A stretch of DNA of 64,000 nucleotides from an uncultured Clostridium sp. Lineage in GTDB: Bacteria; Bacillota; Clostridia; TANB77; CAG-508. The DNA is taken from assembly GCA_900554565.1 (NCBI GenBank), contig USHX01000001.1:15997-79996 (forward strand), given 5' to 3'. Positions 6,971 through 43,683 of the stretch are shown one piece after another. The notes under the pieces are model-generated. The model saw only the letters and a program-made list of their open reading frames with translations. It ran no database searches and had not been told where the DNA came from. The position numbers were made by a program, and so were the translations under genes. Numbering within the stretch: the stretch's first letter is position 1; every line of letters starts with the position of its first letter.

Positions 6971-7124
6971 TTTTCTCCTCCCTTTCTATTGTCATTTTAG
7001 CACAATAATATCCTAATTACTATTTATTTTTTCTTAATTTTTACTAGACATCGAATTTTGTTTGTGTTATTATTATAATATCATAAACAAAAGAAATGAA
7101 ATTTTTTCAAATGGAGGTTTAAAA

Positions 7125-7547
7125 ATGACAAAATTAAAAAACATAAGAGTAATTACAATAATAGCTATTATAGCTTTATTTTTAGGTTTTAACTGTTGCT
7201 ATGCAGTTGATTTAAATTTAACAGACGATGATTTAACAAGCGGTCTTTCAAATAATAGTAATAACACATCTAATAGTAATAACACATCAAATGACTCAAA
7301 TACATCAAATAATTCAAGTACTAATGAAAATACAAATACTGATAATTCTTCAAATAGCACAAACAACTCTACATCAACAGATAATAGCACTTCAACTAAT
7401 GAATCTTCACCATCAGCTAAGGTTTCAACACTATCATCTTCTGATAATGAATTAAGTTTGTCAAATATTTTAAATATTCTTTTAATTGTAATTGGTGTTT
7501 TATTAGTTTTACTTGCTATAGCAATACTAATAAGATTAAAAAAATAA
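7125..7547 (+). CDS. Small surface/membrane-anchored protein with an S/N/T-rich low-complexity region
   Basis: RBS GGAGG 8 nt upstream of MTKLKNIRVITIIAIIALFLGF (signal peptide). Long N/S/T low-complexity stretch and a C-terminal hydrophobic anchor ending LIRLKK. Confidence 0.5.
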   Translation: MTKLKNIRVITIIAIIALFLGFNCCYAVDLNLTDDDLTSGLSNNSNNTSNSNNTSNDSNTSNNSSTNENTNTDNSSNSTNNSTSTDNSTSTNESSPSAKVSTLSSSDNELSLSNILNILLIVIGVLLVLLAIAILIRLKK

Positions 7548-7696: not shown

Positions 7697-8146
7697 ATGA
7701 ACAAGAAAATAGGAATTAGTATTGCTATTATTATTTCCATGATTTTTTCTTTTACTGTTTGTTTTGCAAATGATGGTGGAAATATGGTTCAAGATGCTGC
7801 AAATGGTGTAAGAAATGTAGTTGGTGGAGCAGAAAATGCTGTTGAAGATGCTGCCAAAGGTGTTACTGATGGCGCTAAAAATATAACTAACAACATAGAA
7901 AATGTCGGAAATAAAGCGGAAAACAAAGCTTCAAATATGACAAGTTCAGATAATTCTAGAATGTCTACTAATAATAGTTACACAGCTACTAGAACATCTA
8001 CTGGAACAGAAGCTAATACTTTTATGGGTATGACTGCAACTTCTTGGACTTGGCTAATTATGGGTATAGCTGCTATAGCAATTATTGCTTTAGTTTGGTA
8101 TTACTCTGCTCAAATGCGTTCTTCTAATTATGATGACCGTGATTAA
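7697..8146 (+). CDS. Small secreted/membrane-anchored protein (signal peptide plus C-terminal TM)
   Basis: RBS AGGAGG. MNKKIGISIAIIISMIFSFTVCFA signal peptide and a C-terminal TM helix (WTWLIMGIAAIAIIALVWYY). Confidence 0.5.
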   Translation: MNKKIGISIAIIISMIFSFTVCFANDGGNMVQDAANGVRNVVGGAENAVEDAAKGVTDGAKNITNNIENVGNKAENKASNMTSSDNSRMSTNNSYTATRTSTGTEANTFMGMTATSWTWLIMGIAAIAIIALVWYYSAQMRSSNYDDRD

Positions 8147-10011: not shown

Positions 10012-10722
10012 TTATTTATTCTCTTTTTCTATAGTATTACAATTTTGTTCTTGTATACATTTAGTTTCTGGCTCTTTAAAGCTTAGATACCAACTTATTC
10101 CATTTCGATTTTTTTGAATTTCATCTACTCTAACTTTTAATCCATCATATGTTTTTGGAATTGGTACAATAACAGGATTGTATGGCATCCAGTTTGCAGC
10201 AGTTGAGCCATTTGTACAATCTGCCACTTGTAATGCTCTAACAACTCTTAATATTTCAGGTATAAATCTTCCAACATTCATTGGATATATTAAAATTGTT
10301 CTTACTATTTGTTTATCATCAATTATAAATACATTTCTTACTGTTTGGCTATTACTTACATCACTTGAAATCATTCCATATTTTCTCGCTATTTCACCAT
10401 TTCTGTCTGCAATTATTGGAAATGATATTTGAACTCCTGTTCTACAATATATATCATATACCCATGCTAAATGTGATGGATTGCTGTCTACACTTAATCC
10501 TAATAATTCTGTATTTATTTGTTTAAAGTATGTATGTGCTTTTGTAAATGCTATCATTTCTGTTGTACATACTGGTGTAAAATCTCCTGGATGCGAAAAT
10601 AGTACTAGCCATTTTCCTTTGTAGTCTTCTATATTGACTGTCCCAAATGTTGTTTCTGCTGTGAAGTCTGGTGCTTTTTGTCCTATTTTTACATTTCCAT
10701 TCATCATTAATTCATAATCCAT
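10012..10722 (-). CDS. Peroxiredoxin (1-Cys Prx / Prx6-like, AhpC/TSA family)
   Basis: KIGQKAPDFTAETTFG...WLVLFSHPGDFTPVCTTE peroxidatic cysteine motif. RBS AAAGGAG. Confidence 0.85.
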   Translation of the reverse strand: MDYELMMNGNVKIGQKAPDFTAETTFGTVNIEDYKGKWLVLFSHPGDFTPVCTTEMIAFTKAHTYFKQINTELLGLSVDSNPSHLAWVYDIYCRTGVQISFPIIADRNGEIARKYGMISSDVSNSQTVRNVFIIDDKQIVRTILIYPMNVGRFIPEILRVVRALQVADCTNGSTAANWMPYNPVIVPIPKTYDGLKVRVDEIQKNRNGISWYLSFKEPETKCIQEQNCNTIEKENK

Positions 10723-10778: not shown

Positions 10779-12305
10779 TTATCTATCTTTTTCATTTTCC
10801 ATATATACTCTTCTTTTTAATTCTTTATTTACAATATTTAACAATTGTTCTGTATCTAAATTCATCTCTTTAGATACTCTATCAATAACTTGTTTTTTAT
10901 CCATACCATCTTCCAAATATTCATACATCTTGTCTATACAAGTATTTGCTATATAATTTTCTTCTCTTTGTAACTTTTCACTTACATATTTAGAAACATT
11001 GACACTACTGTCTTTAATTTCTCTTTTTATAATATTTTCTTTTCCAGTTTTGTTCCTTGCCTTTATTTCTGTGTCTATGCTCTGATTTTTTATTGTTTCA
11101 TAATATTTTCGTATCAATACTTTTTTAGCTTCATTCTCAATTTCAGATTTTAAGACCTTTTCTATAGCATCTTTTGTTTTTATATTTTTTTCTATATATG
11201 AAAATCTATTTAATATAATATCCATAGTGTCATCTTCTACATCTTGTCCATATTGTTTGTTTTTAATCTTAGCTTTTAATTGTTTTATAATATATCTACC
11301 ATACTTTTCTACAAATTTATTACTAAGTTTACTTTTTCCAACATATAGTTTTCCTTTTTTGTCTAATACTTTTTGGTATTCTTCAATAGATGTTTCGAAA
11401 GCAATACTCAAAAATTTATTCAAGCTCACGCCTGTTTGCTCACATATTTTATTTATTGTTTCTCTAGAATATACTTCTGCATTATTTTCCACTAAGTATT
11501 TTACTTCATCTTCCCTATTTTTATAAGATTGCATATCCATAGATTTTTTATTTGTCTTTTCTTTTCTATTTAGTACTTCGGGAGTATCTTTACTTTTTGA
11601 GACTTCTAACTTTTCTTTTTTCTCTTTTTCTTTATCCCAATGCTTAAATATGCGCACATTTTTTCCTAGTGTTTTCATATTAGAAAAATTTGAACTACTA
11701 CTTATTTTTAATATTTTAGCAAAATCTGTCTCTTTTGGAACTAAGTTTTTATATTCACTATGAATTTCTTTAAATTCTTGATAATCTATAAGCTTGTTTC
11801 TATAACCCTTTCTTAATAATTCTTTTTGAATTTTTTCAATTGTCTCTTCTTCCAGCTCTTTTTTTAATATTGTTGCTCTTTTTTCTTTGTTTTTCATATT
11901 TAAATATGTTGAATAACTAATATCTAATATTTCTGCAAAAGTTTTTTCTTCTAGTCCAATAGTTTCTAGGTTCATGTCCTTTTTTATCTTTTTATACAAT
12001 TTTTGAAATTCATTATAATTAACAGCTATGTTACTATATCCATCATGAGATACTATTTCTATTATTTTTTCTTTTTCTTCTTGATTTAGTTCCCTTTTTT
12101 GTCCTTTTAAAATTATTGCTTTTGTTTTATCATTTTTTATATGAAAATAATTGGTACGGCTTATTTCTAATATTTCAGCAAAAGTAATATCAGAATAATA
12201 TTTTTTATATGGCTCATATAGTTTTAAAAATTCATTATAATCTATTTTCTTGCCTGCATATTTCTTTTCTATTAGTTTGTATACTATTTCATCTTTAAAA
12301 ATCAT
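10779..12305 (-). CDS. Hypothetical protein with three tandem ~60-aa XRE-like HTH repeats and a C-terminal charged/coiled region
   Basis: Internal repeats: IDYNEFLKLYEPYKK..ITFAEILEISRTNYFHIKNDKTKAIILK / VNYNEFQKLYKKIKK..TFAEILDISYSTYLNMKNKEKRATILK / IDYQEFKEIHSEYKN..DFAKILKISSSSNFSNMK. Confidence 0.5.
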   Translation of the reverse strand: MIFKDEIVYKLIEKKYAGKKIDYNEFLKLYEPYKKYYSDITFAEILEISRTNYFHIKNDKTKAIILKGQKRELNQEEKEKIIEIVSHDGYSNIAVNYNEFQKLYKKIKKDMNLETIGLEEKTFAEILDISYSTYLNMKNKEKRATILKKELEEETIEKIQKELLRKGYRNKLIDYQEFKEIHSEYKNLVPKETDFAKILKISSSSNFSNMKTLGKNVRIFKHWDKEKEKKEKLEVSKSKDTPEVLNRKEKTNKKSMDMQSYKNREDEVKYLVENNAEVYSRETINKICEQTGVSLNKFLSIAFETSIEEYQKVLDKKGKLYVGKSKLSNKFVEKYGRYIIKQLKAKIKNKQYGQDVEDDTMDIILNRFSYIEKNIKTKDAIEKVLKSEIENEAKKVLIRKYYETIKNQSIDTEIKARNKTGKENIIKREIKDSSVNVSKYVSEKLQREENYIANTCIDKMYEYLEDGMDKKQVIDRVSKEMNLDTEQLLNIVNKELKRRVYMENEKDR

Positions 12306-12335
12306 ATTCTTTTACACACCTTTCATAAAGCTATA

Positions 12336-13382
12336 TTATCTTTTCTCTGCTTCTTCTGGCATTTTCTCATATAAAGGTACTATAAAGTTTAGATTTGTGT
12401 CAGTTGAATTAGAATTATCATAAATTTTTCTCATATTTGATGCTTCTGATGTAGCTGCAAGTAGGTTTTGCATATATTGATTTGTATATAATTTTCCATC
12501 TTGTTTTACTACATCGAACTTTTGTAAATACAAAGTATTTTGCCCTTTATTTATATATCCTTCTTTTACAAATTCAACTCCACCTAAAAGACCTTTTTCC
12601 AAAGTATCCCATCCTTGTTCATATGCATATTTGGCAGCGTTTTCTATTATTTCGCTTTGAGAATTTCCACTTGCTTTTATGTTAAATGGATTATATACTG
12701 TTTTTTCTTCATATTCATAACCTTGTGATAAAACCGTTCCTTTTTTTCCTTGTTCTTGAATTAGTCTAGCTGTTATAAAATATGGGTCTACTCCTGCTTT
12801 TTCTCCCGCTTTTATCAATATTTTGGCTGTTTCATCCCCACTTAAAAAGGTATCTTCAGTTATTGTTTTTATACCATTTTCTGTTTGTGCTCCATCTGTG
12901 TATTTTAATTCTAAAAACTGAAAAATTTCATCATCTTTCAAAATATTTCTTGGATCCATTTCATATTTTATAGCTTTGTCTGATGCACATAGCCATGTTC
13001 CATTATCAAAAGTTTTGTCTTTATCAATTTCACATTTCCAATCATCTGGATATTTTGAAGAATCTGGGATTAAATTTAACGGATATTTTACATTATCTTT
13101 GTGTCCTTCATTTACTATTACATCATCCCATTCCAATTTTGTATAAAATAGCGTAAATGTCCAATTTGGATGTTCTTCTTTTAGTTTATCTATTTGTTCT
13201 TTATATCCTGGATATTTCTTCTCATTTATGTTTTTCCCATTATAGGCTACATATTTTGGCTTTTCACTTTCTTTTACTATTAATGTAACAGAAACAATTA
13301 TTATAATTAAAATAGCAATTAATATGCTTATAATTTTTACTTGTTTTATATGACTTTTTAAAAAATCTAATATTTTTTCCAT
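12336..13382 (-). CDS. Membrane-anchored N-acetylglucosaminidase (GH73 / mannosyl-glycoprotein endo-beta-N-acetylglucosaminidase family)
   Basis: RBS AAGGAAGG before MEKILDFLK. N-terminal TM anchor. C-terminal DPYFITARLIQEQG...YNPFNI glucosaminidase signature. Confidence 0.6.
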   Translation of the reverse strand: MEKILDFLKSHIKQVKIISILIAILIIIIVSVTLIVKESEKPKYVAYNGKNINEKKYPGYKEQIDKLKEEHPNWTFTLFYTKLEWDDVIVNEGHKDNVKYPLNLIPDSSKYPDDWKCEIDKDKTFDNGTWLCASDKAIKYEMDPRNILKDDEIFQFLELKYTDGAQTENGIKTITEDTFLSGDETAKILIKAGEKAGVDPYFITARLIQEQGKKGTVLSQGYEYEEKTVYNPFNIKASGNSQSEIIENAAKYAYEQGWDTLEKGLLGGVEFVKEGYINKGQNTLYLQKFDVVKQDGKLYTNQYMQNLLAATSEASNMRKIYDNSNSTDTNLNFIVPLYEKMPEEAEKR

Positions 13383-13461
13383 CGTACCTTCCTTTATTAT
13401 TAAAATCAAGTACCTAAAAAGCCTATTTTATTTAGCTTTCTAAGTACTTTTATATTATTGG

Positions 13462-15192
13462 TTATTTTGTTTTAATCTTAAGTATCCGAAGTTCTTCCCA
13501 TACATTATAGGCTAAGTTTAATCTAAATAGTAATGTTGGTTTTGCCCCAGCTCTGTTTTTATCAACTACACATGCATAATATCTAACATCTGGGTCATCA
13601 TGTTTTTTTAAGTCAAAGAATTTTGTATCAACTTCATTTAGAGAATATTCATAATTTTGTAATGTATCTCTATTAATTTGTTTTATTAAGCATAATGTAT
13701 CTAAAACTTCTTTTACTGTTCTACTAACTGCCAAATCATTTACATTTAAGTTAACCGGAAGTGTTGAACTTTCTGTTAATTGAAGTGTAGAACATATGTA
13801 TATATTAAAGTTTTGAGCTAAGTTTGAAAGTATAGTTGCTGTTTTCTTTAGTTCTTCCCCTATTCCTATATTAGCTGTATCTGTTTTTAATGTATCATAA
13901 AATACATATTCTATTTGTTCCTTGTAGTAATAGTTCATTATTACCTTTTTTAGTTCATCATTTGTGTGATCTGTTATGTTTATAAAGTAAATTGAGTTTG
14001 CTATTTCTTTATTTGCCCATTCTGTAACCGCAATAGTTTTTCTAAATTCTTCTGACTCTTCTGTTAGTCTTTTCACAAAATCTCCTTGTTTTTCTTCTGG
14101 TTTTCTTATTATAAATCCATCTTCATCAACTTTTGTTTTTTTAGGGTCATCTGCTCTGAATTTAAATTCTAGTAATTCTCCTTCTGTTTTTGATAGTTCT
14201 TGTCCATGTAGTTTTTGTATTTCTTTGTTATTTATTATTGTTGTTATCAAACATAATCTCATTTTTTCTTCTGACATTTCATTTGATATAATTAATACTT
14301 TCTTTTTATGTACTAATGCCACATGTGCTGCTATATCTATTGTGAATCTACTTTTACCTGAGTTTGATGGCATTGCATATGCCATTGTTTCTCCTTTTCT
14401 TATTCCTTTAAATACACTTGTTAATATTGGAAATGGTAATGGTAATCCATTTCTTAAGTTGTTATCTCCTCTTTCAAGGAAACTTGTTAAATTTGTATTT
14501 AATATTGCTCTTTTAAACTTCTCAGTATCATTTACTTGAACAATTGCGCTTTCTACTTCTTCAACAGACATTTGGTCATATAAATCATATTTTGTTATTT
14601 CTACAACTTTTTCTTGTATATTTTTTATAGGAATTGCTAAATAGCTTTTTCTTAAGGCAAATATTTTTTTTAGTTCTATATAGATTTTTTCCATATTATA
14701 TCTTTTGCCTTGTACTGCTAATTTTAGTTTACCTTTTAATTTATACACTTCTTCTGAATCTTTTGAAAAGTTAAATCCTGCTTTTGCTATTTCTGGTGTA
14801 TATGCTCCACCTTCTGTGAATAATACACTTTTATATATATTTAATATTTCTGGATCTTCAAAATAACAATCTTGAAATAGAAAATAGAATTTTACTATTT
14901 GTTTTGGGTCATTTAATAATAGTCCCATATATGTATGTTCTAATGGGATATTGCTTAGTTCTGCTGGGTATATACTTTTATTTTTTTCTTCTTTTTCTTC
15001 TCTTGCTTTTACTACTTTTTCTGCTGCCTTTGGTTGTTTCATTGTACTTAGTTTTTCCAACTTTCTTAATGCTTGTATGTAGTCTTTGTTTAATAAGTCT
15101 TGTTTTGTTTCTTCTATTAACATTGCGTTTTCTTTTGTTATTGGTATGTTGTTTATCATTTGGTATATTTGTTCTATTTTATCTTGTTCCAT
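13462..15192 (-). CDS. Divergent DnaB-family (replicative-type) helicase, 576 aa
   Basis: C-terminal RecA-like domain with Walker A AMPSNSGKSRFTIDIAAHVALVHKKKVLIISNEMSEEKM (compare DnaB ARPSMGKT...FSLEMS), TLQLTES (compare SQLNR) and VDKNRAGAKPTLLF (compare AKNRNGPTG). The N-terminal ~250 aa is not a canonical DnaB N-domain. Confidence 0.55.
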   Translation of the reverse strand: MEQDKIEQIYQMINNIPITKENAMLIEETKQDLLNKDYIQALRKLEKLSTMKQPKAAEKVVKAREEKEEKNKSIYPAELSNIPLEHTYMGLLLNDPKQIVKFYFLFQDCYFEDPEILNIYKSVLFTEGGAYTPEIAKAGFNFSKDSEEVYKLKGKLKLAVQGKRYNMEKIYIELKKIFALRKSYLAIPIKNIQEKVVEITKYDLYDQMSVEEVESAIVQVNDTEKFKRAILNTNLTSFLERGDNNLRNGLPLPFPILTSVFKGIRKGETMAYAMPSNSGKSRFTIDIAAHVALVHKKKVLIISNEMSEEKMRLCLITTIINNKEIQKLHGQELSKTEGELLEFKFRADDPKKTKVDEDGFIIRKPEEKQGDFVKRLTEESEEFRKTIAVTEWANKEIANSIYFINITDHTNDELKKVIMNYYYKEQIEYVFYDTLKTDTANIGIGEELKKTATILSNLAQNFNIYICSTLQLTESSTLPVNLNVNDLAVSRTVKEVLDTLCLIKQINRDTLQNYEYSLNEVDTKFFDLKKHDDPDVRYYACVVDKNRAGAKPTLLFRLNLAYNVWEELRILKIKTK

Positions 15193-15335
15193 AGTTTTTT
15201 CTCCTATTTATCTTTTCTTTTTGTTTTCTTTCATATTATATAATGAAACTAGCCTATTTACAATAGATTTTTTTAGAATTTTATGATATTATTATTTGGT
15301 ACTAATTATTAACTTTAGAAAAGGAGAATTTAATT

Positions 15336-17010
15336 ATGGCCTTTGATGGAATCGTAACAAAAGCAATCGCATCAGAATTACAACAACTATCTGGTGCAAG
15401 AATAGATAAAATATTTCAACCTACATCTAATAACATAGTTTTAGGTTTTTATTTAAATGGTACAAACTATGCATTAAATATATGTACAGACTCTGCCAAT
15501 TATAGAATAAATTTAACAACGCACACCAAGCCTAATCCAAAAGTTGCGCCTAATTTTTGTATGGTTTTGCGTAAACATCTTATTGGGTTACACATAAAAA
15601 ATATTATAACCTCAAATTTAGAAAGGATTGTAACTATTGAGTTTGAAGGTCTTGATGAAATTGATGATTTAATATCCAAAAAACTTATAATAGAGCTTAT
15701 GGGTAAACATTGCAATATTATATTATTAGATGATGAAAATATAATAATAGATAGTTTGAGACATATAAACAAAGAAAATTCAAGACATATAGTTATTCCA
15801 CATATAAAATATACATACCCAGAAATTTCAAAACAAAACTTTTTAGAATGTACTAGCTTTGCTGATTTTTCTAGCAAAGTTTCTGATGTAACTTCTATAC
15901 CAAATGTATTTAATCGGAATAAGTAAATTTCAAGTAGAGTCTCTGCATTCTAATAATTTAGAAGATGCATATTTAAAATTGAAAAAACTTGTAAACAATA
16001 CAGACTCATTAAATTTAAAGTTTGAAACTTCTGATAAAAATTATTATTTGGTTGCTAGTCCAAATAATAAATCATTCTCTTTGAACTTTTTTATAGATGA
16101 TTTTTATTTTGAAAAAGAATCAAATGAAGAACTAAAGACTTTTAGAAATAGTGTTTTAAAACTAATTTTAGCTACTCTTAAAAAATATAAAACTAGATTA
16201 AAAAATATTAATGAAAAATTAGAAGCTTGTAATAATATGGATACTTATAGATTATATGGTGAATTAATTACAGCTAATCTATATAGAATTCCTAACAGAA
16301 ATTCAAGTGAAATTGAACTAGAAAATTATTATGATAATAATAATTTGATAACAATTCCTTTAGATAGCAAGTATCTCCCTAGTATTAATGCTAAAAGATA
16401 TTTTAAGAAATACAACAAGCTAAAAAATGCTTTAGAAATTGTTGGCAAACAAAAAGAAGATACTATTAATGAGTTAAACTATATAGAAAGTATTGTTTAT
16501 GAATTAGAAGCGGCTAACTCTATTGATGAAATATCAGAAATATTTGAAGAAATTTCTGAAAATGTTATTTTTGAAAATCAAACTAACAAATACAAAAATA
16601 AAAAGAATAAAAAATCAAAAGTAAAAAAATCTTCACTTACAAAAAATAAAAATGTACAATTTAATCCACATAAATACTCTATTGATGGCTTTACTTTTCT
16701 TGTTGGTAGAAATAATAAAGAAAATGATTATTTGACTATAAAATATGCAAAAAAATCAGATTTATGGTTTCATACAAAAGATGTTCATGGAAGTCATGGT
16801 ATTTTAGTTTTGAATGGCAATGTACCAAGTCAAGAAATTTTGGTTAAGTGTGCACAGATTGTTGCTTATAATAGTAAAGCTCGACTTTCTTCTAATGTTC
16901 CAGTCGACTTTTGTGAAGTTAGATATGTGAAAAAGCCTAATGGCTCTAAACCTGGTATGGTTATTTATACTAACAATTCTACATTATATGTAACACCTAA
17001 TAATAAATAA
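15336..17010 (+). pseudogene. rqcH: Ribosome quality-control protein RqcH / fibronectin-binding protein FbpA (NFACT family), split by a frameshift
   Basis: ORF1 (15336..15926) is MAFDGIVTKAIASELQQLSGARIDKIFQP..., the NFACT N-terminus. ORF2 (15904..17010) carries the central coiled-coil and the C-terminal NFACT-R/DUF814 (FLVGRNNKENDYLT...HTKDVHGSH). The junction reads ttt aat C gga ata agt. Deleting c15915 gives ...PNVFNGISKFQVESLH, which aligns to B. subtilis RqcH HFSGVSPLFAKEAVH. Confidence 0.8.
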
Positions 17011-18036: not shown

Positions 18037-21000
18037 TTATATTTTTAAACTTTTTCCTAAATATACTGAATAAATATATTTCTTTGATACCTTCTTTTTG
18101 GTCGCAAACTCTAAAGCTCTTTGATAAAGTTCTAACTGTTTCTTATATTTTTTAATCAATTCATTTTCATTGCCTTTTTCAACATAATCAGTTTTATAAT
18201 CAACCAAAACAAGTTCATCATTCTCATTTATATAATACAAATCTATAATTCCTTGTACCAAAATTTCGCTTTCAGTATCTTCTTCATAAATTTCACTTGC
18301 AGGAATATTAATATAAAATGGCCTTTCTTTATATAATTCTTTTGTGTTTTTACATTCTTCATAAATTTCTGATTTAGTAAACTCAAGTATTTTATATGGA
18401 TTAATATTTTCTAATTCTTTTGAGCTTATAATTTCTTTATCACATAGAGCTTGTAAAAATTTCTTTACTTTATCTAAATCATATTCTTGATTATAATCTA
18501 ATTTTTGCAAACACAAATGTATTAAAGTTCCTTTTTGCGCTCCTGTTAGTTTTTCTTTTTTTTCTTCATTTATAAATGCTGGCTCTGGCAACTCTATTGT
18601 TTCATCTTTTCCAATTACGCCTTCTTTTTCTAATTTCATTTGTTTTAAGTTGGTAACAGATGTTTTTGTAGGAATTGTTGTTTCTAGTTGATATCTATAT
18701 TTTTGATTCATTTCTTTTTCTAGTTTTTCTAAGTCCGATTTTTCAGTAGCCCTGCCCTCAAAGACTTTTAAGACATCAACTTCTTCCCTATTTTCTTTTT
18801 TGGTTTCTTCTAAAATGTTTTTCTTTGAATGCACTTTCAAATCAATCTTTTGTGCATTTTCTTTTTCATATTCATATACTAACATTATCCAATCCAAGTA
18901 TCTTTTATATTTTTTTACTAAAATAGGATTTATTTTATTTGAATTTTTTTCATATCGTTCTGCTTGCTCTGAAATTTTTTGATGTTCTTTTTCATAATCA
19001 TTTGAAATTCCTGTTATTATTAGTTTTTCTTTTGCCCTTGTTAGAGCAACATATAATACTCTCATTTCTTCTGACAAGGTTTCTATATGCATTTTGTTTC
19101 TTATCGCTGCTTTAGATAGTGTATCATATTGAATTTGTTTATCATAATCTATGTATTTCACACCTATTCCCATTTCTTGATGTAATAATACATTTTGATT
19201 TAGGTCCATCAAATTAAATTGTTTTCCAGTACTTGATAAAAATACTACAGGGAACTCTAATCCTTTGCTTTTATGAATACTCATAATTCTTATAACATTG
19301 TCATTTTCACCTATTAGCTTAGCAGCTCCCATATCTCCACTGCTAAGTTTTAGCTTGTCTATGAAGTTTATAAAATTGTATAATCCTTTAAAATTTGAAC
19401 TTTCATATTGTTTTGCTTTCTGAAAAAGCATTTTTAGGTTTGCTTGTCTTAATTCTCCATTTGTCATTAAACCAACATAATTATAAAATCCTGTATCACT
19501 ATAAAGTTTCCAAATAAATTCATCTAAAGCCAAATATTCTTGTTCTTCTCTCCAACCTTCTAATTTTTCTAAGAAGTTTTGTATCTTCGTTTTTAGATTT
19601 TGTTCAACTCCAATTATTGATTTTTGCATACATGTATAAAAATCTTCATATGGTGAAGCCAACCTTATTTGAACTAGTTCATCATCTGTAAATCCTCCTA
19701 TAAATGACCTTAGTACTGTAACTAGTGGAATATCTTGTATTGGATTATCTATAATTTTTAATAAACACATTATTGTTTGAATTTCTATTGAGTCTAAATA
19801 TTCTTGTGAACTATCTGAGAATACTGGCATTTCTAAGTTTAGTATTTCTTGTTCATATATAGGTGCAGTATTTGCTGTTGACCTTAATAAAACTACTATA
19901 TCTTTATATTCTATATCTCTATATTTTTCTTTTTTTCTATCCCAAACAGGAAATTTGATTTCAATTAGTTTTTTTATTTTGTTTGCCACAAATCTTGCTT
20001 CAAGTTCTATATTTTCAACTCTTTCTTCTTCCAGCTCTTCTTGTTCTGTTTCTTCTATTTCATCTTGTTCTTTCAAATCTATAATGTTTATCTCTGTATC
20101 TAAATTTTGCCCAATATCTGAATAGCTTGCACCTAAATTTAAGTATTCATCTTGGTTATATTCTATATCTCCTAAAATATTACTCATAATATCTTGGAAA
20201 ATTAGATTTGTAAAATCAAGTACATTTTCTCTACTTCTGAAGTTCTTAAATAATTGAATTTTCAAGTTGTCATCTTTGGCTTTTGTTTCCTTGTTTTTAT
20301 ATGTATTATACTTATCTAAAAATAACTCTGGCATTGCTTGTCTAAATTTGTATATGCTTTGTTTTACATCTCCAACCATAAATATGTTGTTATTTCTTGA
20401 TACTGCCTTTAAAATATATTCTTGTACCAAATTGCTATCTTGATATTCATCTATCGCTATTTCCTCATATTTTTCTTGATATCTTTTGGCTACTTGTGAT
20501 GGTTTTATTTCTCCATTTTCTTCTTTTAATAAAATTTCAAGTGCAAAATGTTCTATGTCTGTAAAGTCTACTATATTTTTATCTCTTTTTCTTTTTGAAA
20601 ATTCTTTTCCAAACTCTAAAATAATTTCTTCTAGTTTTACCAATATTTCATACATATCATAAATGTCTTGGTTAGCTTGTTTTGAGTCACAAAATAGTAT
20701 TTTGTCTAATACTTTGGTTAGCTTTTTCTTTACATCATCTCTTATTATTTTTGCCTCATCTTTTTTTGGTGATTCTACTTTTTGTCTTGGCCATGTAACA
20801 AATTTGAAATCCTGATTTATGGTATATGCCTTATCCCAGCTATGTAAATTATTTTTTAGTCCTTGCATCATGTCTATATCATTTCTGATTGTTTGGTAAA
20901 ATTTTTCTAATTCACTATCATAACTCAATTGTCTTGCTACTTCTTCTAAAGAGGTTATTCCATCTATAAGCCCTTCATCTACTTCTTTTAGTAGCTCTTC

Positions 21001-21650
21001 TCCCCATTTAGTTTTTGCAAAGTCTTCTTCTAACTTTCCTTGTAAATTGAACATTTCTATTTTTTCATTTAACCATTTTTCCGGAAATGGACTGCTTCCT
21101 ATATATGTATAGATTTTTAATATTAAATCTTTTAGTGGTGTATCATCTCTATAACTTGTGTATGTATTTATTAGTTTAGTAAAATTTTCATTTTCTTCTT
21201 CATATTTCTTTTCAAAAATGTCTTCTATTACTTCTTGTTTTAGCAGTTCTATTTCTGTTGTATCCGCAATTCTGAAGTTTGGAGATATGTTCTCCAATTC
21301 GTAAAAGTTATTTCTTACTACTTCTAAGCAAAATGAGTCTATTGTGCAAATACTGGCTTTATTAAGTAATGTTATTTGCCTTTGTAAATGCTCATTTCCT
21401 AAATCTTCATCTAACTTTTTGTATATTGCATCTAAAACTCTTTCTCTCATTTCAGATGCTGCAGCATTTGTGAATGTTACAACTAATAATTTGTCTATGT
21501 CTATTTTTTCATTTATTATTTTGTTTATTATTCTTTCTACTAGTACTGCTGTTTTTCCACTTCCGCGCCGCAGCTGCTACTAATATGTTTGAGCCTTTTT
21601 CATATATTGCATCTTGTTGTTCTTTTGTCCATTTTACTTCGCTCATTTTA
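18037..21650 (-). pseudogene. addA: AddA-like ATP-dependent helicase/nuclease (UvrD-family helicase plus C-terminal PD-(D/E)xK nuclease), frameshifted in Walker A
   Basis: The ATG at 21650 gives MSEVKWTKEQQDAIYEKGSNILVAAAARKWKNSS* (stop). The 1137-aa ORF in the other frame continues upstream as ...TAVLVERIINKIINEKIDIDKLLVVTFTNAAASEMRERV. Coding strand reads gcg gcg C gga agt gga aaa aca. Removing the C gives VAAAAGSGKTAVLVER. The extra plus-strand base is g21565. The C-terminus carries the nuclease motif LVLVDYKTD. Confidence 0.8.
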
Positions 21651-38765: not shown

Positions 38766-41381
38766 TTATTGCATTTTTTCTTTTATTCTGACTAAAGTAT
38801 TTAAAGCATCAATTGGAGTAAGTTCATTTAAGTTAATTTTATCTATTTCATGAGCAATTTCTGCTAATTTATAATTATACATATCAAATTGACCTTCAAC
38901 TTGTTTTTTATCTTGTTTTTCTTCTTTCTTACCAGTTAAAATATTTTTTCTTTCCAATGAACGTAAAATTTCATTTGCTTTTTTAGTTACTATTTTAGGA
39001 ACTCCTGCAAGTCTAGCTACATGGATACCATAGCTTTCATCAGTTCCACCTTCTACTATTTTTCTTAAAAAGATTATATCTTCGCCTTTTTCTTTTACAG
39101 CTATTGAATAATTTTTTATTCCTTCAAGTTTGTTCTCTAATTCTGTTAATTCATGGTAATGTGTTGCAAATAGAGTTTTTGCTCCACATTTTTCTTTGTC
39201 TGCTATATATTCTGCAACAGCCCATGCAATTGATAAACCATCATATGTTGATGTTCCTCTTCCTATTTCATCTAATATTACTAAACTGTTAGATGTTGCT
39301 TCATTTAGTATGTTTGCCACTTCCATCATCTCTACCATAAATGTACTTTGTCCCATACTTAAATCATCAGATGCTCCAACTCTTGTAAAGATTTTATCAA
39401 CTACTCCTATTTTTGCACTTGTTGCTGGTACGAAACTTCCAACTTGTGCCATTAGAGTAATTAAAGCTACTTGTCTCATATATGTAGATTTACCTGCCAT
39501 GTTTGGTCCTGTTATTATTGCTAGTCTGTTTTCTTCTTTATCTAAATATGTATCATTTTCTACAAAGCTTCCTGCTCCTTGAATTTTTTCTATTACCGGA
39601 TGTCTTCCACCTTTTATATCTATTCGTCCTTCACTGTTTACTTCTGGCATGCAATAATTCATGTCTTCTGCAACTTGTGCAAATGAGCTTATTACATCTA
39701 AGCTTGAAACAACTTCGCTTGTTTTTTGTAAACGTACAACATTCTTGGCTATTAATTCTCTTATTTGAACAAATGCATCATATTCTAAGTTTACAACTTT
39801 TTCTTCTGCTCCTAAAATTTGATTTTCTAGATTTTTTAATTCTTCTGTTATATATCTTTCTGCATTTGTAAGTGTTTGTTTTCTAATATATCTTTCAGGT
39901 ACTTGGTCCAAATTTGATTTTGTTACTTCAATAAAATATCCAAATACTTTGTTAAATCCAATTTTTAAGTTTTTTATACCTGTTTTTTCTTTTTCTTCCG
40001 CTTCTAAAGCTATAAGCCAATTTTTTCCTTCTGTTTGAGCTGTTTTTAATTTGTCTATTTCTTCATCATAACCTAATTTGATTATTCCACCATCTTTTAT
40101 TGTCATCGGTGGGTCATCTACAATTGATGTTTCTATTAATTGATAAATGTCTTGTAATTCATCTAAATTTTCATATAGTTCTCTTAATAATTCTGATTTA
40201 CAATTTGTTAAGATTTGTTTTACTTCTGGCAATTTCATTAATGAGTTTTTTAATGTTACCATATCTCTTGCATTTGCATTACCATATGCCATTTTTCCTG
40301 CTAATCTTTCTATGTCATAAACTTTTTTTAAGTTTTCTATTATTTCTCCTCTTAACATTAAATCATCTTTTAATTCTTTTACAGCATTTAGTCTTTTATT
40401 TATTTCTTTTACATCTATTAGCGGATCATTTAGCCATCTTCTTAAAAGCCTTCCTCCCATTGATGTTGATGTTTTGTCAAGAACCCATAAAAGTGTTCCT
40501 TTTTTTGACTTATCTCTCATTTTTTCTGTCAACTCTAGGTTTCTTCTTGCATTAATATCTAAGGCCATATATTTAGATAAGTTGTAAATTGTTATTTTGT
40601 TTATATGGTCTAAGCTTGTTTTTTGAGTTTCTTCTATATATTCAACTAATGCATTTATAGATGCTACAATTAATGTTTTTTCTTTTATATTTTCTAGTTT
40701 TTTTCCTTCATTATCTACTATATTAAATCTTAAATCTATATTGTTTAATTCTGTTTTGAAAAATTTATCATTAAATTTTGTTACATATACATTTTCAAAT
40801 CTTTCTTTTATTTTTGACATTTCTTCTTCGCAGTTTGCCATCATTGAATTTACAACTAATTCTGATGGTGTATATCTTGCTATTTCATCTAACAATGTTG
40901 GGAAATTGTTTTGTTCTTTTATTTCTGCCGAATAAAATTCTCCTGTTGATATATCACATACACTTATTCCAAAATATATTCCTGTTTTGAATATTGACAT
41001 TATATAGTTGTTTTTTCTTTCTTCTAGCATATTACTATCTACTAGTGTTCCTGGTGTTACAACTCTTATTACTCCCCTTTTTACTATTCCTTTAGTTTTT
41101 TTAGGGTCTTCTAATTGTTCACATATAGCTACTTTATATCCTTTTGCAATTAATCTTGAAACATATATTTCTGCTGCATGATGTGGTATTCCACACATTG
41201 GTGCTCTTTCTTCTTGTCCACAGTCTTTTCCTGTTAATGTCAATTCTAGCTCTCTTGAAGCTGTTATGGCATCATCAAAAAACATTTCATAAAAGTCACC
41301 TAATCTATAAAATAATATACAATCTTCATATTCTTTCTTTGTTTCTAAGTACCTTTGCATCATAGGTGAAAATTCTGCCAT
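38766..41381 (-). CDS. mutS: DNA mismatch repair protein MutS
   Basis: 871 aa. MAEFSPMMQRYLETKKEYEDCILFYRLGDFYEMFFDDA mismatch-binding domain; GPNMAGKSTYMRQ Walker A; THYHEL motif. Confidence 0.9.
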   Translation of the reverse strand: MAEFSPMMQRYLETKKEYEDCILFYRLGDFYEMFFDDAITASRELELTLTGKDCGQEERAPMCGIPHHAAEIYVSRLIAKGYKVAICEQLEDPKKTKGIVKRGVIRVVTPGTLVDSNMLEERKNNYIMSIFKTGIYFGISVCDISTGEFYSAEIKEQNNFPTLLDEIARYTPSELVVNSMMANCEEEMSKIKERFENVYVTKFNDKFFKTELNNIDLRFNIVDNEGKKLENIKEKTLIVASINALVEYIEETQKTSLDHINKITIYNLSKYMALDINARRNLELTEKMRDKSKKGTLLWVLDKTSTSMGGRLLRRWLNDPLIDVKEINKRLNAVKELKDDLMLRGEIIENLKKVYDIERLAGKMAYGNANARDMVTLKNSLMKLPEVKQILTNCKSELLRELYENLDELQDIYQLIETSIVDDPPMTIKDGGIIKLGYDEEIDKLKTAQTEGKNWLIALEAEEKEKTGIKNLKIGFNKVFGYFIEVTKSNLDQVPERYIRKQTLTNAERYITEELKNLENQILGAEEKVVNLEYDAFVQIRELIAKNVVRLQKTSEVVSSLDVISSFAQVAEDMNYCMPEVNSEGRIDIKGGRHPVIEKIQGAGSFVENDTYLDKEENRLAIITGPNMAGKSTYMRQVALITLMAQVGSFVPATSAKIGVVDKIFTRVGASDDLSMGQSTFMVEMMEVANILNEATSNSLVILDEIGRGTSTYDGLSIAWAVAEYIADKEKCGAKTLFATHYHELTELENKLEGIKNYSIAVKEKGEDIIFLRKIVEGGTDESYGIHVARLAGVPKIVTKKANEILRSLERKNILTGKKEEKQDKKQVEGQFDMYNYKLAEIAHEIDKINLNELTPIDALNTLVRIKEKMQ

Positions 41382-41384
41382 TTT

Positions 41385-42233
41385 TTATTCTCCTTTTTCT
41401 TCTTCTTTTATTTCTTCTATTTCATATTTTTCTATTTGTTTTTCTATTCTTCTTAATGTACTTACACTAACTCCCAATACCTTTGCTTTTTGAGCCTGTG
41501 TACCATCTACTTTTTCAACCTTTTTTAACATTTCTTTTAGTTTATTGTATTTACTTTCTCTTTTTGAAATTGTATCTACTATAACTTCTTTTTCATTATA
41601 ACTACTTATTATTTCTTCTGCTAGATAACTTTCAAAAGGTTCAAATCTCTTTCTTTTCATCATTCTATTTGAGTGTTCTTTTGCTATTTTGTATAATGGT
41701 AAATATGTTTCATCTTTCTTCAATTTTTCTATTTCTCTACTTACTGTTCTAGCTGGAATTCCATACTGTTTAGCAATTTCCGTTTGAGTTAAATCTTTTT
41801 GTATCATTTCTATTGTTAATGCTTTAAAGTTTATAAATGAATAGTCTGGATGTATTCTTTTTTGATACTCCACAAATTTTTGTTTTAATTCAGGGTCTCC
41901 ACTTTTATTTACATATTCTATAATTTTCTCATTTAAAGTTTGTTTGTGCAACTTCATAGAATTAGATACTTGATTTAATGTTAGTTCTCCATTTAGAATA
42001 TTTTCTATGTTCTTTCTTAATTCTTCCTCATTAATTATTTTTGTTGCTGAGTTTGCTTTATTAAATGATAGTATTTGTTCAAGCTGTTTCCTTTCTCTAC
42101 TATTTTCTGGAAATCTCTTTTTACATTCTTCACTAAAATCGTTTCTATCAAAGCCATATTTTTCTGAAATTTGTCTTACACTTTTTCCATTTAATAATTC
42201 TTTAAATGCTTTCTCAAATATCTTATTTTCCAT
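41385..42233 (-). CDS. Hypothetical protein with three short HTH-like segments
   Basis: VRQISEKYGFDRNDF / TQTEIAKQYGIPARTVSREIEKLKK / TQAQKAKVLGVSVSTLRRIEKQIEK. Lies between miaB and mutS. Confidence 0.45.
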   Translation of the reverse strand: MENKIFEKAFKELLNGKSVRQISEKYGFDRNDFSEECKKRFPENSRERKQLEQILSFNKANSATKIINEEELRKNIENILNGELTLNQVSNSMKLHKQTLNEKIIEYVNKSGDPELKQKFVEYQKRIHPDYSFINFKALTIEMIQKDLTQTEIAKQYGIPARTVSREIEKLKKDETYLPLYKIAKEHSNRMMKRKRFEPFESYLAEEIISSYNEKEVIVDTISKRESKYNKLKEMLKKVEKVDGTQAQKAKVLGVSVSTLRRIEKQIEKYEIEEIKEEEKGE

Positions 42234-42264: not shown

Positions 42265-43683
42265 TTATTTTAACTCACCCTTTAAATACCACATGTGTTG
42301 TGAAACTATTTTTATATCTACTATTTTATCTTTTAATTCTTTTGGTCCTTCAAATATTACTACTTTGTTACTATCGGTTCTTCCTGAAAGCATTTCTTTG
42401 TTGTTCTTGCTTTCTCCTTCTACTAATACCTTTTGAATTGTTCCTATGTATTTTTGGTTATTTTCTTCAATTTGGCTTTCAACTAATTTTTTTAGTTTGT
42501 CAAATCTTATGTGTTTTATTTCTTCTGGCACTTGATTTTCCATTTTATCTCCTGGTGTTCCAACTCTTCTTGAATATATAAACATATATACTTGCTCAAA
42601 TTTTACTTTTTCTACAACATCTAATGTATCTTCAAATTCTTCATCAGTCTCGCCAGGAAAGCCTACAATTATGTCTGTAGATAGTGTTAAATTTGGTATT
42701 CGTTTTTTCATCTTTTCTACTAATTCTAAATATTGCTCTTTTGTATATTTTCTATTCATTGTTTTTAAAACTCTACTATTACCAGATTGAAGTGGTAAAT
42801 GTACTAATTTGCATACTTTATCACATTCTGCTATTGCTTGAATTACATCATCTGTAAAATCTTTTGGGTGTGGTGATATAAATCTTATTCTTTCTATTCC
42901 TTCTATTTTGTTTATTGCTCTTAATAGAGTTGCAAATGAATGTACTCCTTCATGTTCTTCTATTTCTATGCCTTTTCTATTTTCTTCTCTTAAATATGAA
43001 TTTACATTTTGGCCTAATAGTGTAATTTCTTTGTATCCATCTTTTGCTAGATTTCTTACTTCTTCTATTATGTCTTTTGGCATTCTGCTTCTTTCTCTAC
43101 CACGTACATATGGAACTATGCAATATGTACAGAAATTGTTACACCCATTCATTATTGTTACAGATGCTTTTATTTTACTGTCTCTTTTTATTGGTAAACC
43201 TTCATATACTTTTCCATCTATATCTATTATGTCTTCTAGTTTTCTTTTTTCATCTATTACTTTATATAAGTCTTCTGGGAATTTATGTAATGTATGTGTT
43301 CCAAATAATATATCTACAAATGGATAGCTTTCTTTTATTTTGTCTGTAATGTGTTTTTCTTGCATCATGCAACCACCAATTGCTATTATTATTCCTTTTT
43401 GTTCCTTTAGCTTTTTTAGTTCACCTAGCTTACCAAATAATTTGTCTTCCGCATTTTCTCTTACGCAACATGTGTTGAATAATGCTATTGATGCTTCTTC
43501 TTGTTTTTCTGTTTTTTGATAACCCATTTCTTCTAACATTCCACATAGTTTTTCTGAGTCATTTTCATTTAGTTGGCATCCCATTGTTAGAATTGTGTAT
43601 TTTAAGTTTTTTCCTTCATTTATGTTTTTCATTTTTTCTATGTATTGTTTTTGATTTTCTATTTCTATTGCTTGTTTGTTCAT
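42265..43683 (-). CDS. miaB: tRNA-2-methylthio-N6-dimethylallyladenosine synthase (radical SAM methylthiotransferase)
   Basis: YTILTMGCQLNENDSEKLCG (MTTase N-domain), CNNFCTYCIVPYVRG radical-SAM CxxxCxxC, and a TRAM domain at the C-terminus. Confidence 0.9.
   Translation of the reverse strand: MNKQAIEIENQKQYIEKMKNINEGKNLKYTILTMGCQLNENDSEKLCGMLEEMGYQKTEKQEEASIALFNTCCVRENAEDKLFGKLGELKKLKEQKGIIIAIGGCMMQEKHITDKIKESYPFVDILFGTHTLHKFPEDLYKVIDEKRKLEDIIDIDGKVYEGLPIKRDSKIKASVTIMNGCNNFCTYCIVPYVRGRERSRMPKDIIEEVRNLAKDGYKEITLLGQNVNSYLREENRKGIEIEEHEGVHSFATLLRAINKIEGIERIRFISPHPKDFTDDVIQAIAECDKVCKLVHLPLQSGNSRVLKTMNRKYTKEQYLELVEKMKKRIPNLTLSTDIIVGFPGETDEEFEDTLDVVEKVKFEQVYMFIYSRRVGTPGDKMENQVPEEIKHIRFDKLKKLVESQIEENNQKYIGTIQKVLVEGESKNNKEMLSGRTDSNKVVIFEGPKELKDKIVDIKIVSQHMWYLKGELK

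Follow-up and report, generated by a model that had tools for sequence, protein, structure and literature searches.

The question raised by this locus is whether three genes that stand in tandem on the minus strand of a 64-kb stretch of DNA from an uncultured Clostridium sp. (contig USHX01000001.1; the whole stretch is called the window here) form a functional unit and, if they do not, why a helicase of phage type is lodged in housekeeping DNA. The genes encode a 576-residue DnaB-family helicase (HEL), a 357-residue membrane-anchored glucosaminidase (GH73) and a 508-residue repeat protein (HTH3). The initial annotation of the sequence had read them as the residue of a phage or plasmid replication and lysis module, or as an undescribed helicase-associated system. 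The explanation that best accounts for the results overall, and towards which we lean, if only slightly, is that the trio arose by chance and that HEL was domesticated from a mobile element and now acts at the replication fork of its host lineage.

Absence of a conserved three-gene unit

The three open reading frames (ORFs) are as follows.

13462..15192, minus strand: HEL, 576-residue DnaB-family helicase of the E3-like (phage/mobile-element) subfamily, a lineage core gene (ORF, family matches, structural model)
12336..13409, minus strand: GH73, 357-residue membrane-anchored N-acetylglucosaminidase, SagB/Atl-like (NCBIfam SagB, PDB matches, hydropathy)
10779..12305, minus strand: HTH3, 508-residue protein of a rare family, a species-specific cassette (ORF, repeats, 29 homologues)

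They stand back to back as originally described, with gaps of 30-56 nt within the trio and to the next gene. The remark that the helicase lies outside the usual rplI-dnaB context, in housekeeping DNA, also holds: one flank consists of the divergent rqcH (NFACT) and then addA, the other of prx, a DUF1540 gene, fba (fructose-bisphosphate aldolase) and smpB, and the G+C (GC) profile is uniform at ~26-29%, with no compositional island.

A scan of one genome per GTDB species gave ~434 loci encoding a HEL relative. The best 80 of these, which are 68-96% identical to the window HEL and include Clostridium sp. CAG:343, were compared by tblastn with the window proteins. HEL was found in all 80, at the rqcH/prx locus or a rearranged version of it, with rqcH nearby in 63, prx in 44 and fba in 30. 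GH73 is near HEL in two of the 80 (L001 and L035), and HTH3 was found beside HEL in none. Because HEL directly abuts prx in 13 genomes (gap 83-302 bp) and rqcH in 27, the ancestral order appears to be rqcH<>HEL>prx, variable insertions of 1-8 kb having been accepted at both junctions.

L001, a sister genome, matches the window collinearly at ~93-95% nucleotide identity; the one departure is at window positions 10797-12304, which are exactly HTH3 and in place of which L001 has a PP-loop ATPase gene. Searches around the trio for att-like direct or inverted repeats gave nothing beyond chance matches and the repeats internal to HTH3, and transfer RNA and Rfam scans of the window were without matches. 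Since HTH3 is replaced in L001 and flanking repeats are absent, the trio is, as judged from these comparisons, a chance species-level juxtaposition and not a system. The breakpoints between L001 and the window at the HTH3 slot are clean, lie on gene borders and are without repeats; the L001 gene (10893-11720, 275 residues, PF01171) has an SGGKDS motif suggesting a TtcA/TilS-like enzyme.

The reading of the trio as a replication-and-lysis remnant or a helicase-associated system must therefore be weighed against its lack of conservation. The co-orientation of the genes with such short gaps, the phage/mobile-element type of the HEL subfamily and the occurrence of GH73 domains also in phage tail lysins (phrog_759) are what would be expected of such a module. 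By contrast, the three genes do not co-occur elsewhere, another gene occupies the HTH3 slot in a 93%-identical sister genome, HTH3 homologues occur elsewhere without a helicase, and GH73 is lineage-wide and under purifying selection. There is, moreover, no integrase, att repeat, tRNA or GC anomaly at the locus, and the partner of the helicase in phage relatives is a primase, not a lysin. HEL is, in addition, no residue, being intact in 81/81 genomes with a ratio of non-synonymous to synonymous substitution rates (dN/dS) of 0.065. A three-gene module of either kind is accordingly considered highly improbable. An anti-phage defence role for the trio was likewise set aside, with no PADLOC defence model matching HEL, GH73 or HTH3 at E <= 0.01. 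GH73 was also considered as a disguised phage primase, its 357-residue length being equal to that of a primase beside phage helicases, but the two have no similarity.

HEL has the complete architecture of a DnaB helicase

The following features of HEL, all on the minus strand, are referred to below.

14959..15192, minus strand: clade-specific N-terminal extension, a three-helix unit (residues 1-50) and a Lys/Glu-rich linker (residues 51-78)
14458..14958, minus strand: DnaB-type N-terminal domain, helical hairpin and linker helix (residues 79-245)
13465..14457, minus strand: RecA-like ATPase domain (residues 246-576)
14347-14367, minus strand: Walker A motif SNSGKSR (residues 276-282)
14272-14289, minus strand: catalytic-Glu motif ISNEMS (residues 302-307)
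13999-14229, minus strand: subfamily insertion (residues 322-398)
13885-13902, minus strand: Walker B motif FYDTLK
13768-13788, minus strand: Gln motif TLQLTES (residues 469-475)
13540-13560, minus strand: Arg-finger motif KNRAGAK (residues 545-551)

All of the motifs quoted in the initial annotation in support of a DnaB C-terminal RecA-like ATPase are present, and the Pfam DnaB_C model matches residues 249-363 above its gathering score (1.9e-9). The phrog_19 profile extends over residues 26-568 (5.5e-27), and TIGR00665 aligns its positions 4-290 with HEL residues 80-355, at 38.5 bits versus a cut-off of 385.25. The NF00xxxx DnaB models all score <= 27 bits, the equivalog cut-off (TIGR00665 / NF004384) not being reached, PF00772 (DnaB N-terminal) was not detected on HEL by the Pfam search, and a single-sequence PDB search with HEL gave no match.

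A 41-sequence family alignment (A1) was used for profile searches and for an AlphaFold2 (AF2) monomer model of HEL, which has a predicted local distance difference test score (pLDDT) of 88.7. The top PDB folds for this model are full-length DnaB helicases, i.e. 4esv (G. stearothermophilus), 4nmn (Aquifex), 7t22 (E. coli), T4 gp41 and SPP1 G40P, with Foldseek E values of ~1e-16 to 1e-13 over ~500-530 aligned columns. Matches of the A1 profile to DnaB structures set in at chain residues 4-30 (4nmn 4-243; E. coli DnaB 30-270; best E = 9e-16), the match to the bacterial DnaB N-terminal domain running through motif H1a. Because full-length DnaB folds are recovered and the profile match begins at residue 4, the N-terminal region of HEL is a DnaB N-terminal domain, and just residues 1-78 are additional. 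Thus, of what had been described as a non-canonical 250-residue N-terminal region, most proves to be of DnaB type by TIGR00665, profile and Foldseek comparison, and the description fits the extension only.

The extension, which is absent from the phage relatives in alignment A1, is modelled with helices at residues 2-14, 23-34 and 38-50 and low pLDDT over residues 51-70; its within-clade conservation is 0.48 in the helices and 0.26 in the linker. In some other chromosomal lineages the helicase has N-terminal extensions of 100-370 residues made almost entirely of Asp/Glu (L093 9001-11670, i.e. P0152; P0150, P0153, L147 and L157). These have recurring (F)LPG(L/M) motifs and loosely recall the acidic tails of SSB.

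In comparison with bacterial DnaB (E. coli and G. stearothermophilus DnaB; B. subtilis DnaC), HEL has the two-domain architecture and fold in common, together with equivalent Walker A, catalytic Glu, Walker B, Gln and Lys/Arg-finger motifs, even though the identity is just 12-16%. Alignment to E. coli DnaB places K280 in Walker A, E305 at SLEM, D433 at Walker B/IDYLQL, Q471 at H3/SQL, and K545 and R547 at GKQRNG, from which catalytic roles for E305, D433, Q471, K545 and R547 may be assigned. G279, K280, E305, D433, Q471, K545 and R547 are invariant in 81/81 orthologues and across the family, the ORF is intact in all 81, and the RecA core is ~90% conserved. HEL is thus a DnaB-family protein with a complete structure and an intact set of catalytic residues. 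It differs from bacterial DnaB in its 78-residue N-terminal extension, in not lying beside rplI, and in an insertion region of the RecA core that has 77 residues versus 31 in E. coli DnaB (~45 residues extra).

Relationship to phage and mobile-element helicases

The subfamily to which HEL belongs is small and discrete, with no curated model of its own, and is part of PHROG 19. A phmmer search with HEL over 1.84 billion cluster representatives gave just 478 matches at E <= 1e-3 and did not reach canonical DnaBs among them, and a BLAST search with E. coli DnaB does not detect HEL. Among deposited phage genomes HEL matches just three records (Geobacillus virus E3, twice, and Lysinibacillus phage LC76P1), and in the plasmid collection just a few large Bacillus and Vagococcus plasmids; a scan of viral contigs with a phage-type subfamily member gave no match.

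Full-length relatives below ~54% identity (23-38% identical, 470-620 residues) sit on mobile elements. P0168 (23 contigs) and P0191 lie in modules with a Sak4-like ATPase, helicase, Toprim primase, RecJ-like exonuclease, UDG, Pol III alpha and RecD2, and P0166 has a primase fragment a short way downstream. Geobacillus virus E3 (141 kb) represents the subfamily among cultured phages and has the gene order helicase-(HNH)-primase-RecJ-Pol III alpha, as in the metagenomic modules. Its helicase, GP100, is 28% identical to HEL (2e-24) and matches HEL orthologues in the fetched loci, at best with ~3e-33. On phage contigs with an E3-like helicase (L086-L088, 2016-4745 and 16220-19677) a LAGLIDADG intein was observed inside a UvrD-like helicase, and in 2/3 variants a homing-endonuclease-like ORF interrupts the Pol III alpha gene.

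P0190, a member of the nearest sister group, is on an element with tyrosine integrases. Because its contig repeats itself after ~15.7 kb, with copies at L101 549-5920 and 16254-21625 and likewise in L102 and L103, the element is suggested to be small and circular. It encodes 2-3 tyrosine integrases, a HEPN protein, DUF6076, the helicase and, directly downstream of the latter, an unannotated 677-residue protein, possibly a primase or initiator.

When a neighbour-joining tree is rooted with E. coli DnaB, its sole and very distant outgroup, the chromosomal sequences form one clade in 200/200 bootstraps, nested among mobile-element sequences. The phage or mobile-element ancestry proposed at the outset for the helicase is borne out by this nesting, and by the occurrence of the relatives outside the chromosomal clade on phages or an integrase-bearing element. 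The helicases of large Bacillota phages (E3 GP100 and metagenomic sequences) are 28-38% identical to HEL and have in common with it the RecA insertion and the motif variants SN.GKSR, NEM, YDTLK, QL.D/E and KNR.G; more distant phage kin include Lactococcus phage 949 ORF60, SPP1 G40P (PDB 3bgw) and T4 gp41. By contrast with the E3-type phage copies, which occur in helicase-primase-RecJ-Pol III alpha modules, HEL is a solitary gene among housekeeping genes; it has become fixed in hundreds of species and has acquired its N-terminal extension.

Conservation and chromosomal contexts of HEL

Between the window and L001 the dN/dS of HEL (0.065) compares with 0.079 for fba and 0.12 for prx, and over the 80 loci its median identity of 74% is similar to those of AddA (67%), RqcH (64-72%) and Prx (76%). 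Thousands of close homologues occur in gut metagenomes and in metagenome-assembled genomes (MAGs) that go under 'Clostridia bacterium' or 'Clostridium sp.'. In the sister species Clostridium sp. CAG:343 the longest contig is 1.56 Mb, from which a small genome, and hence a lower likelihood of redundancy, follows. HEL is, on these comparisons, fixed, vertically inherited and strongly constrained in a large lineage of uncultured Clostridia.

Divergent chromosomal members, 52-71% identical to the window HEL, were traced in metagenome contigs, where they occur in the context ftsA-ftsZ-(spoIIGA-sigE)-HEL-(sigG)...rpsF-ssb-rpsR-dut-carD-dnaG. Further lineages have clpP-clpX-HEL, rpoA-rplQ...HEL, ligA-folD-x-HEL, recQ/HEL/topA or HEL-recJ-relA-hisS; several of these contexts concern DNA metabolism. 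Because the housekeeping neighbourhoods of the divergent members are so different, the pattern fits an old core gene that would have been relocated by genome rearrangements, and not a recent insertion.

Within the 64-kb window and ~180 loci, i.e. in HEL neighbourhoods alone, neither a canonical dnaB (tblastn with E. coli DnaB) nor rplI (L9 motif) was found, and where rpsF-ssb-rpsR is visible the classical rplI-dnaB continuation is missing. No primase, RecJ-like, Pol III alpha or integrase gene lies beside HEL in the window or the 80 loci. A 640-residue gene present upstream of HEL in 37 loci was considered as a primase or loader and rejected, since its translation, judged by eye and with no family search made on it, is that of a DUF2207-like membrane protein.

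Possible roles of HEL

The course of events that best fits these results is that an ancestor of the lineage, which comprises low-GC gut Clostridia, would have captured a mobile-element helicase without its partner genes, and that HEL would since have passed down by vertical inheritance as one core gene under strong constraint. HEL would be expected to assemble as a ring on single-stranded DNA and to move 5'->3' by ATP hydrolysis at the subunit interfaces, its N-terminal collar probably recruiting the host DnaG. That HEL has taken over the role of canonical DnaB at the chromosomal replication fork seems about evenly poised, or marginally favoured, in view of its conservation at the level of essential neighbours, its presence in all loci examined, the small genomes and the DNA-metabolism neighbourhoods. 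The fuller proposal, that an entire uncultured lineage with reduced genomes, comprising hundreds of CAG:343-related species, has lost canonical DnaB and replicates its chromosome with the captured HEL, the N-terminal extension acting as an adaptor to the loading or priming machinery, could equally well be right or wrong.

Several points weigh against a fork helicase, and some of them speak at the same time for an alternative in which canonical DnaB is kept elsewhere in the genome and HEL is a conserved second DnaB-like helicase, mobile-element-derived, with an accessory task. DnaB is, to our knowledge, near-universal in bacteria, and a lineage without it would be exceptional; the searches that gave no canonical dnaB cover HEL neighbourhoods, so that one may lie elsewhere in the genome; and the N-terminal extension is variable, with hundreds of acidic residues in some lineages, which is unusual for a replicative helicase. 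In addition, no helicase loader or primase gene is consistently beside HEL, and the direction from mobile element to host is partly a matter of parsimony because the neighbour-joining tree has one very distant outgroup. The accessory tasks that come into question are replication restart, recombination or repair, a sporulation-specific DNA transaction and interference with E3-type phages, and the position of HEL between sigE and sigG, or beside recJ or recQ, in some lineages would suit such tasks. Such a role accords less well with the retention of HEL in ~434 species with genomes of ~1.5 Mb, with its low dN/dS and invariant ATPase residues, with the lack of a PADLOC match, and with the lack of canonical dnaB/rplI in the window and the ~180 neighbourhoods, including those where rpsF-ssb-rpsR is visible. 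An accessory helicase is thus a serious possibility, although we would sooner expect it to be wrong than right.

That HEL is instead a fast-evolved but vertically inherited ancestral DnaB, the phage and mobile-element copies having been acquired from such hosts, would be compatible with its DnaB-type architecture and full set of motifs and with the weak rooting of the tree. HEL, however, evolves slowly within its clade, in no lineage examined occupies the rplI position, and has the subfamily-specific insertion in common with the phage members, and the chromosomal clade is nested in diverse phage and mobile-element sequences, including phages of Geobacillus and other Bacillota; this alternative is regarded as very unlikely. 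Capture from a mobile element, followed by service at the fork, therefore remains the reading that we would put forward.

The genes downstream of HEL: GH73 and HTH3

The features of the two other genes of the trio are as follows.

about 13272-13340, minus strand: GH73, transmembrane helix
about 12402-13010, minus strand: GH73, catalytic domain
12747-12764, minus strand: GH73, putative catalytic Glu in LIQEQG
12090-12305, 11847-12089 and 11628-11846, minus strand: HTH3, helix-turn-helix (HTH)-like repeats
10782-11516, minus strand: HTH3, helical C-terminal domain, after a disordered linker

The product of GH73 matches the NCBIfam SagB model at 9.5e-22 (77.5 bits, below the cut-off of 425) and, over residues 134-336, the PDB structures 6fxp (SagB, 1.2e-14), 6u0o and 6fxo (1e-14 to 5e-13); Pfam Glucosaminidase (PF01832) was not detected on it. 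Its LIQEQG segment is aligned to LLETG, the catalytic-Glu motif of the SagB/Atl structures in the PDB. A Kyte-Doolittle peak of 3.4 at residues 26-44 (segment IISILIAILIIIIVSVTLIV) indicates one N-terminal membrane helix, and the true start is probably Met10, at 13380-13382. In having a single N-terminal anchor followed by a GH73 domain with an aligned catalytic-Glu motif, the protein resembles the S. aureus SagB/Atl glucosaminidase domain, from which it differs in an extra ~85-residue segment between the anchor and the catalytic domain compared with SagB. It would act by trimming cell-wall glycan strands.

Because it has 1932 homologues, with >= 120 clusters at 65-80% identity and equal length, and a dN/dS of 0.094 (window versus L001), GH73 is a lineage-wide housekeeping enzyme, usually encoded elsewhere in the genome and not functionally tied to HEL. 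The description of it as a lysin-like glucosaminidase with a signal-anchor is thus correct as to the GH73 type and the single N-terminal membrane helix.

HTH3 has three internal repeats of ~73-81 residues, with a DNA repeat period of 219-243 nt, and 29 homologues among 5.8 billion proteins. The family comprises 3 to ~7 tandem units of ~75 residues, with the consensus ...IDYxEFLxLYEPY...EFAxILGISY...IKN...ILK, and a conserved helical C-terminal domain (~245 residues). Each repeat has a segment like FAEILxIS..tY..IKN, recalling XRE/Cro-type HTH proteins, with weak HTH matches: the match of HTH3 to Xre-like-HTH is below threshold (E = 5e-4, 20.7 bits versus a Pfam cut-off of 25.8), and some homologues have precomputed Pfam assignments to HTH_3, HTH_26 (PF13443) or Xre-like-HTH. 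Of the earlier description as a protein of three XRE-HTH repeats, the repeats are therefore confirmed, whereas the XRE label is weak. The AF2 model (pLDDT 79) gave no significant match to PDB folds, nor did a profile search, and the tandem array with its C-terminal domain, unlike XRE/Cro-type proteins, was matched to no described family or solved fold. In other genomes the homologues are found in the vicinity of two-component, FBPase and uvrB genes, or of WYL and MCM-like genes, and in no case beside a helicase. HTH3 is probably a DNA-binding regulator, which is a guess from the weak HTH similarity.

A second multi-HTH protein, of 282 residues, is encoded in the window at 41385-42233 (minus strand), between a miaB-like gene (42265-43683) and mutS (38766-41381), and has per-domain sub-threshold matches to HTH_23, HTH_28, Xre-like-HTH and HTH_3.

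Flanking genes and other features of the window

The immediate surroundings of HEL and the trio comprise the following.

15336..17010, plus strand: rqcH (NFACT family), divergent neighbour upstream of HEL (synteny in 63/80 loci; NFACT Pfam domains on the intact orthologue)
15235..15263, minus strand: promoter-like site TTGTAA-17-TATAAT upstream of HEL (consensus scan alone)
10012..10722, minus strand: prx (peroxiredoxin), downstream neighbour of HEL (synteny in 44/80 loci)

By the consensus scan, the number of promoter-like sites in the region is not above the shuffled expectation. In the window, rqcH is split into ORFs of 196 and 368 residues by a +1 frameshift, an extra C at 15915 (AAT-C-GGA); when this C is removed the gene reads ...NVFNGISKFQ..., matching intact orthologues. 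The sister MAG L001 has the identical frameshift. For the downstream half dN/dS is 0.073, indicating purifying selection, and the upstream half has 23 synonymous versus 10 non-synonymous codon changes; because of these substitution patterns in both halves, a functional split gene or recoding is suggested, and not a dead pseudogene.

The prx gene is intact in the window, but its 5' part is an integration site in relatives. In L090 (11790-20114) a ~7.6-kb element ending in a 524-residue large serine recombinase splits prx into pieces of 58 and 185 residues, as is seen by comparison with L091 11789-12481, both being from the Clostridium sp. CAG:343 species. In many other loci just prx residues 1 to ~50 lie beside HEL, followed by kilobases of foreign genes. 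In the same species addA (L090/L091 3371-7119) consists of two overlapping ORFs of 762 and 494 residues, which may be another lineage-specific frameshift or split, compared with one ORF of 1137 residues in the window (18037-21450). Elsewhere in the window, at 7062-7547 and 7697-8146 (plus strand), two small proteins have hydrophobic N- and C-terminal segments and a Ser/Asn/Thr-rich low-complexity middle; their position is kept across the clade at just 35-66% identity.

Precedents and implications

As far as we know, DnaB is regarded as a universal, vertically inherited core component of the bacterial replisome. Phage-derived DnaC/DnaI loaders are found in bacteria, and the phage takeovers known to us concern helicase loaders rather than the helicase. 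Should HEL be the fork helicase, its history would be a process like that reported for VdhL1/VdhL2 in Vibrionaceae, where helicase loaders have undergone viral replacement (PMC11087808), in that a mobile-element replication protein takes an essential host role. Both the VdhL1/VdhL2 and the DnaC/DnaI cases concern loaders and rest on presence/absence patterns together with biochemistry, whereas HEL is known here from sequence and a model. A literature search gave no report on HEL or on missing dnaB in HEL-bearing lineages. For the uncultured order TANB77, of which the window's membership was not verified, complete genomes have been described in which just ~80% of Clostridiales marker genes were recovered (PMC9606305), which, if it applies here, would point towards a takeover of the DnaB role.

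Deposited entries of HEL bear the names 'putative uncharacterized protein' (CAG:343) or 'DnaB-like helicase C-terminal domain-containing protein', and the gene will escape marker-based tools for annotation and completeness that are set up for canonical DnaB. Virus-prediction pipelines can in turn take HEL for a viral hallmark, so that false provirus calls are possible in this lineage. Three IMG/VR uncultivated virus genome (UViG) contigs (L094-L096) start exactly at a chromosomal-type HEL gene (64% identity), and it is probable that HEL, at the edge of a provirus, was mistaken there for a viral hallmark.

HEL is a well-delimited new variant of the DnaB family whose evolutionary status is unusual: a conserved homologue of mobile-element origin in gut bacteria that are prevalent, uncultured and discussed in medicine. 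If canonical DnaB coexists with it, the question becomes that of the function of a strongly conserved second ring helicase. If the reading preferred here is true, the case of HEL would be one of xenologous displacement of the replicative helicase itself.

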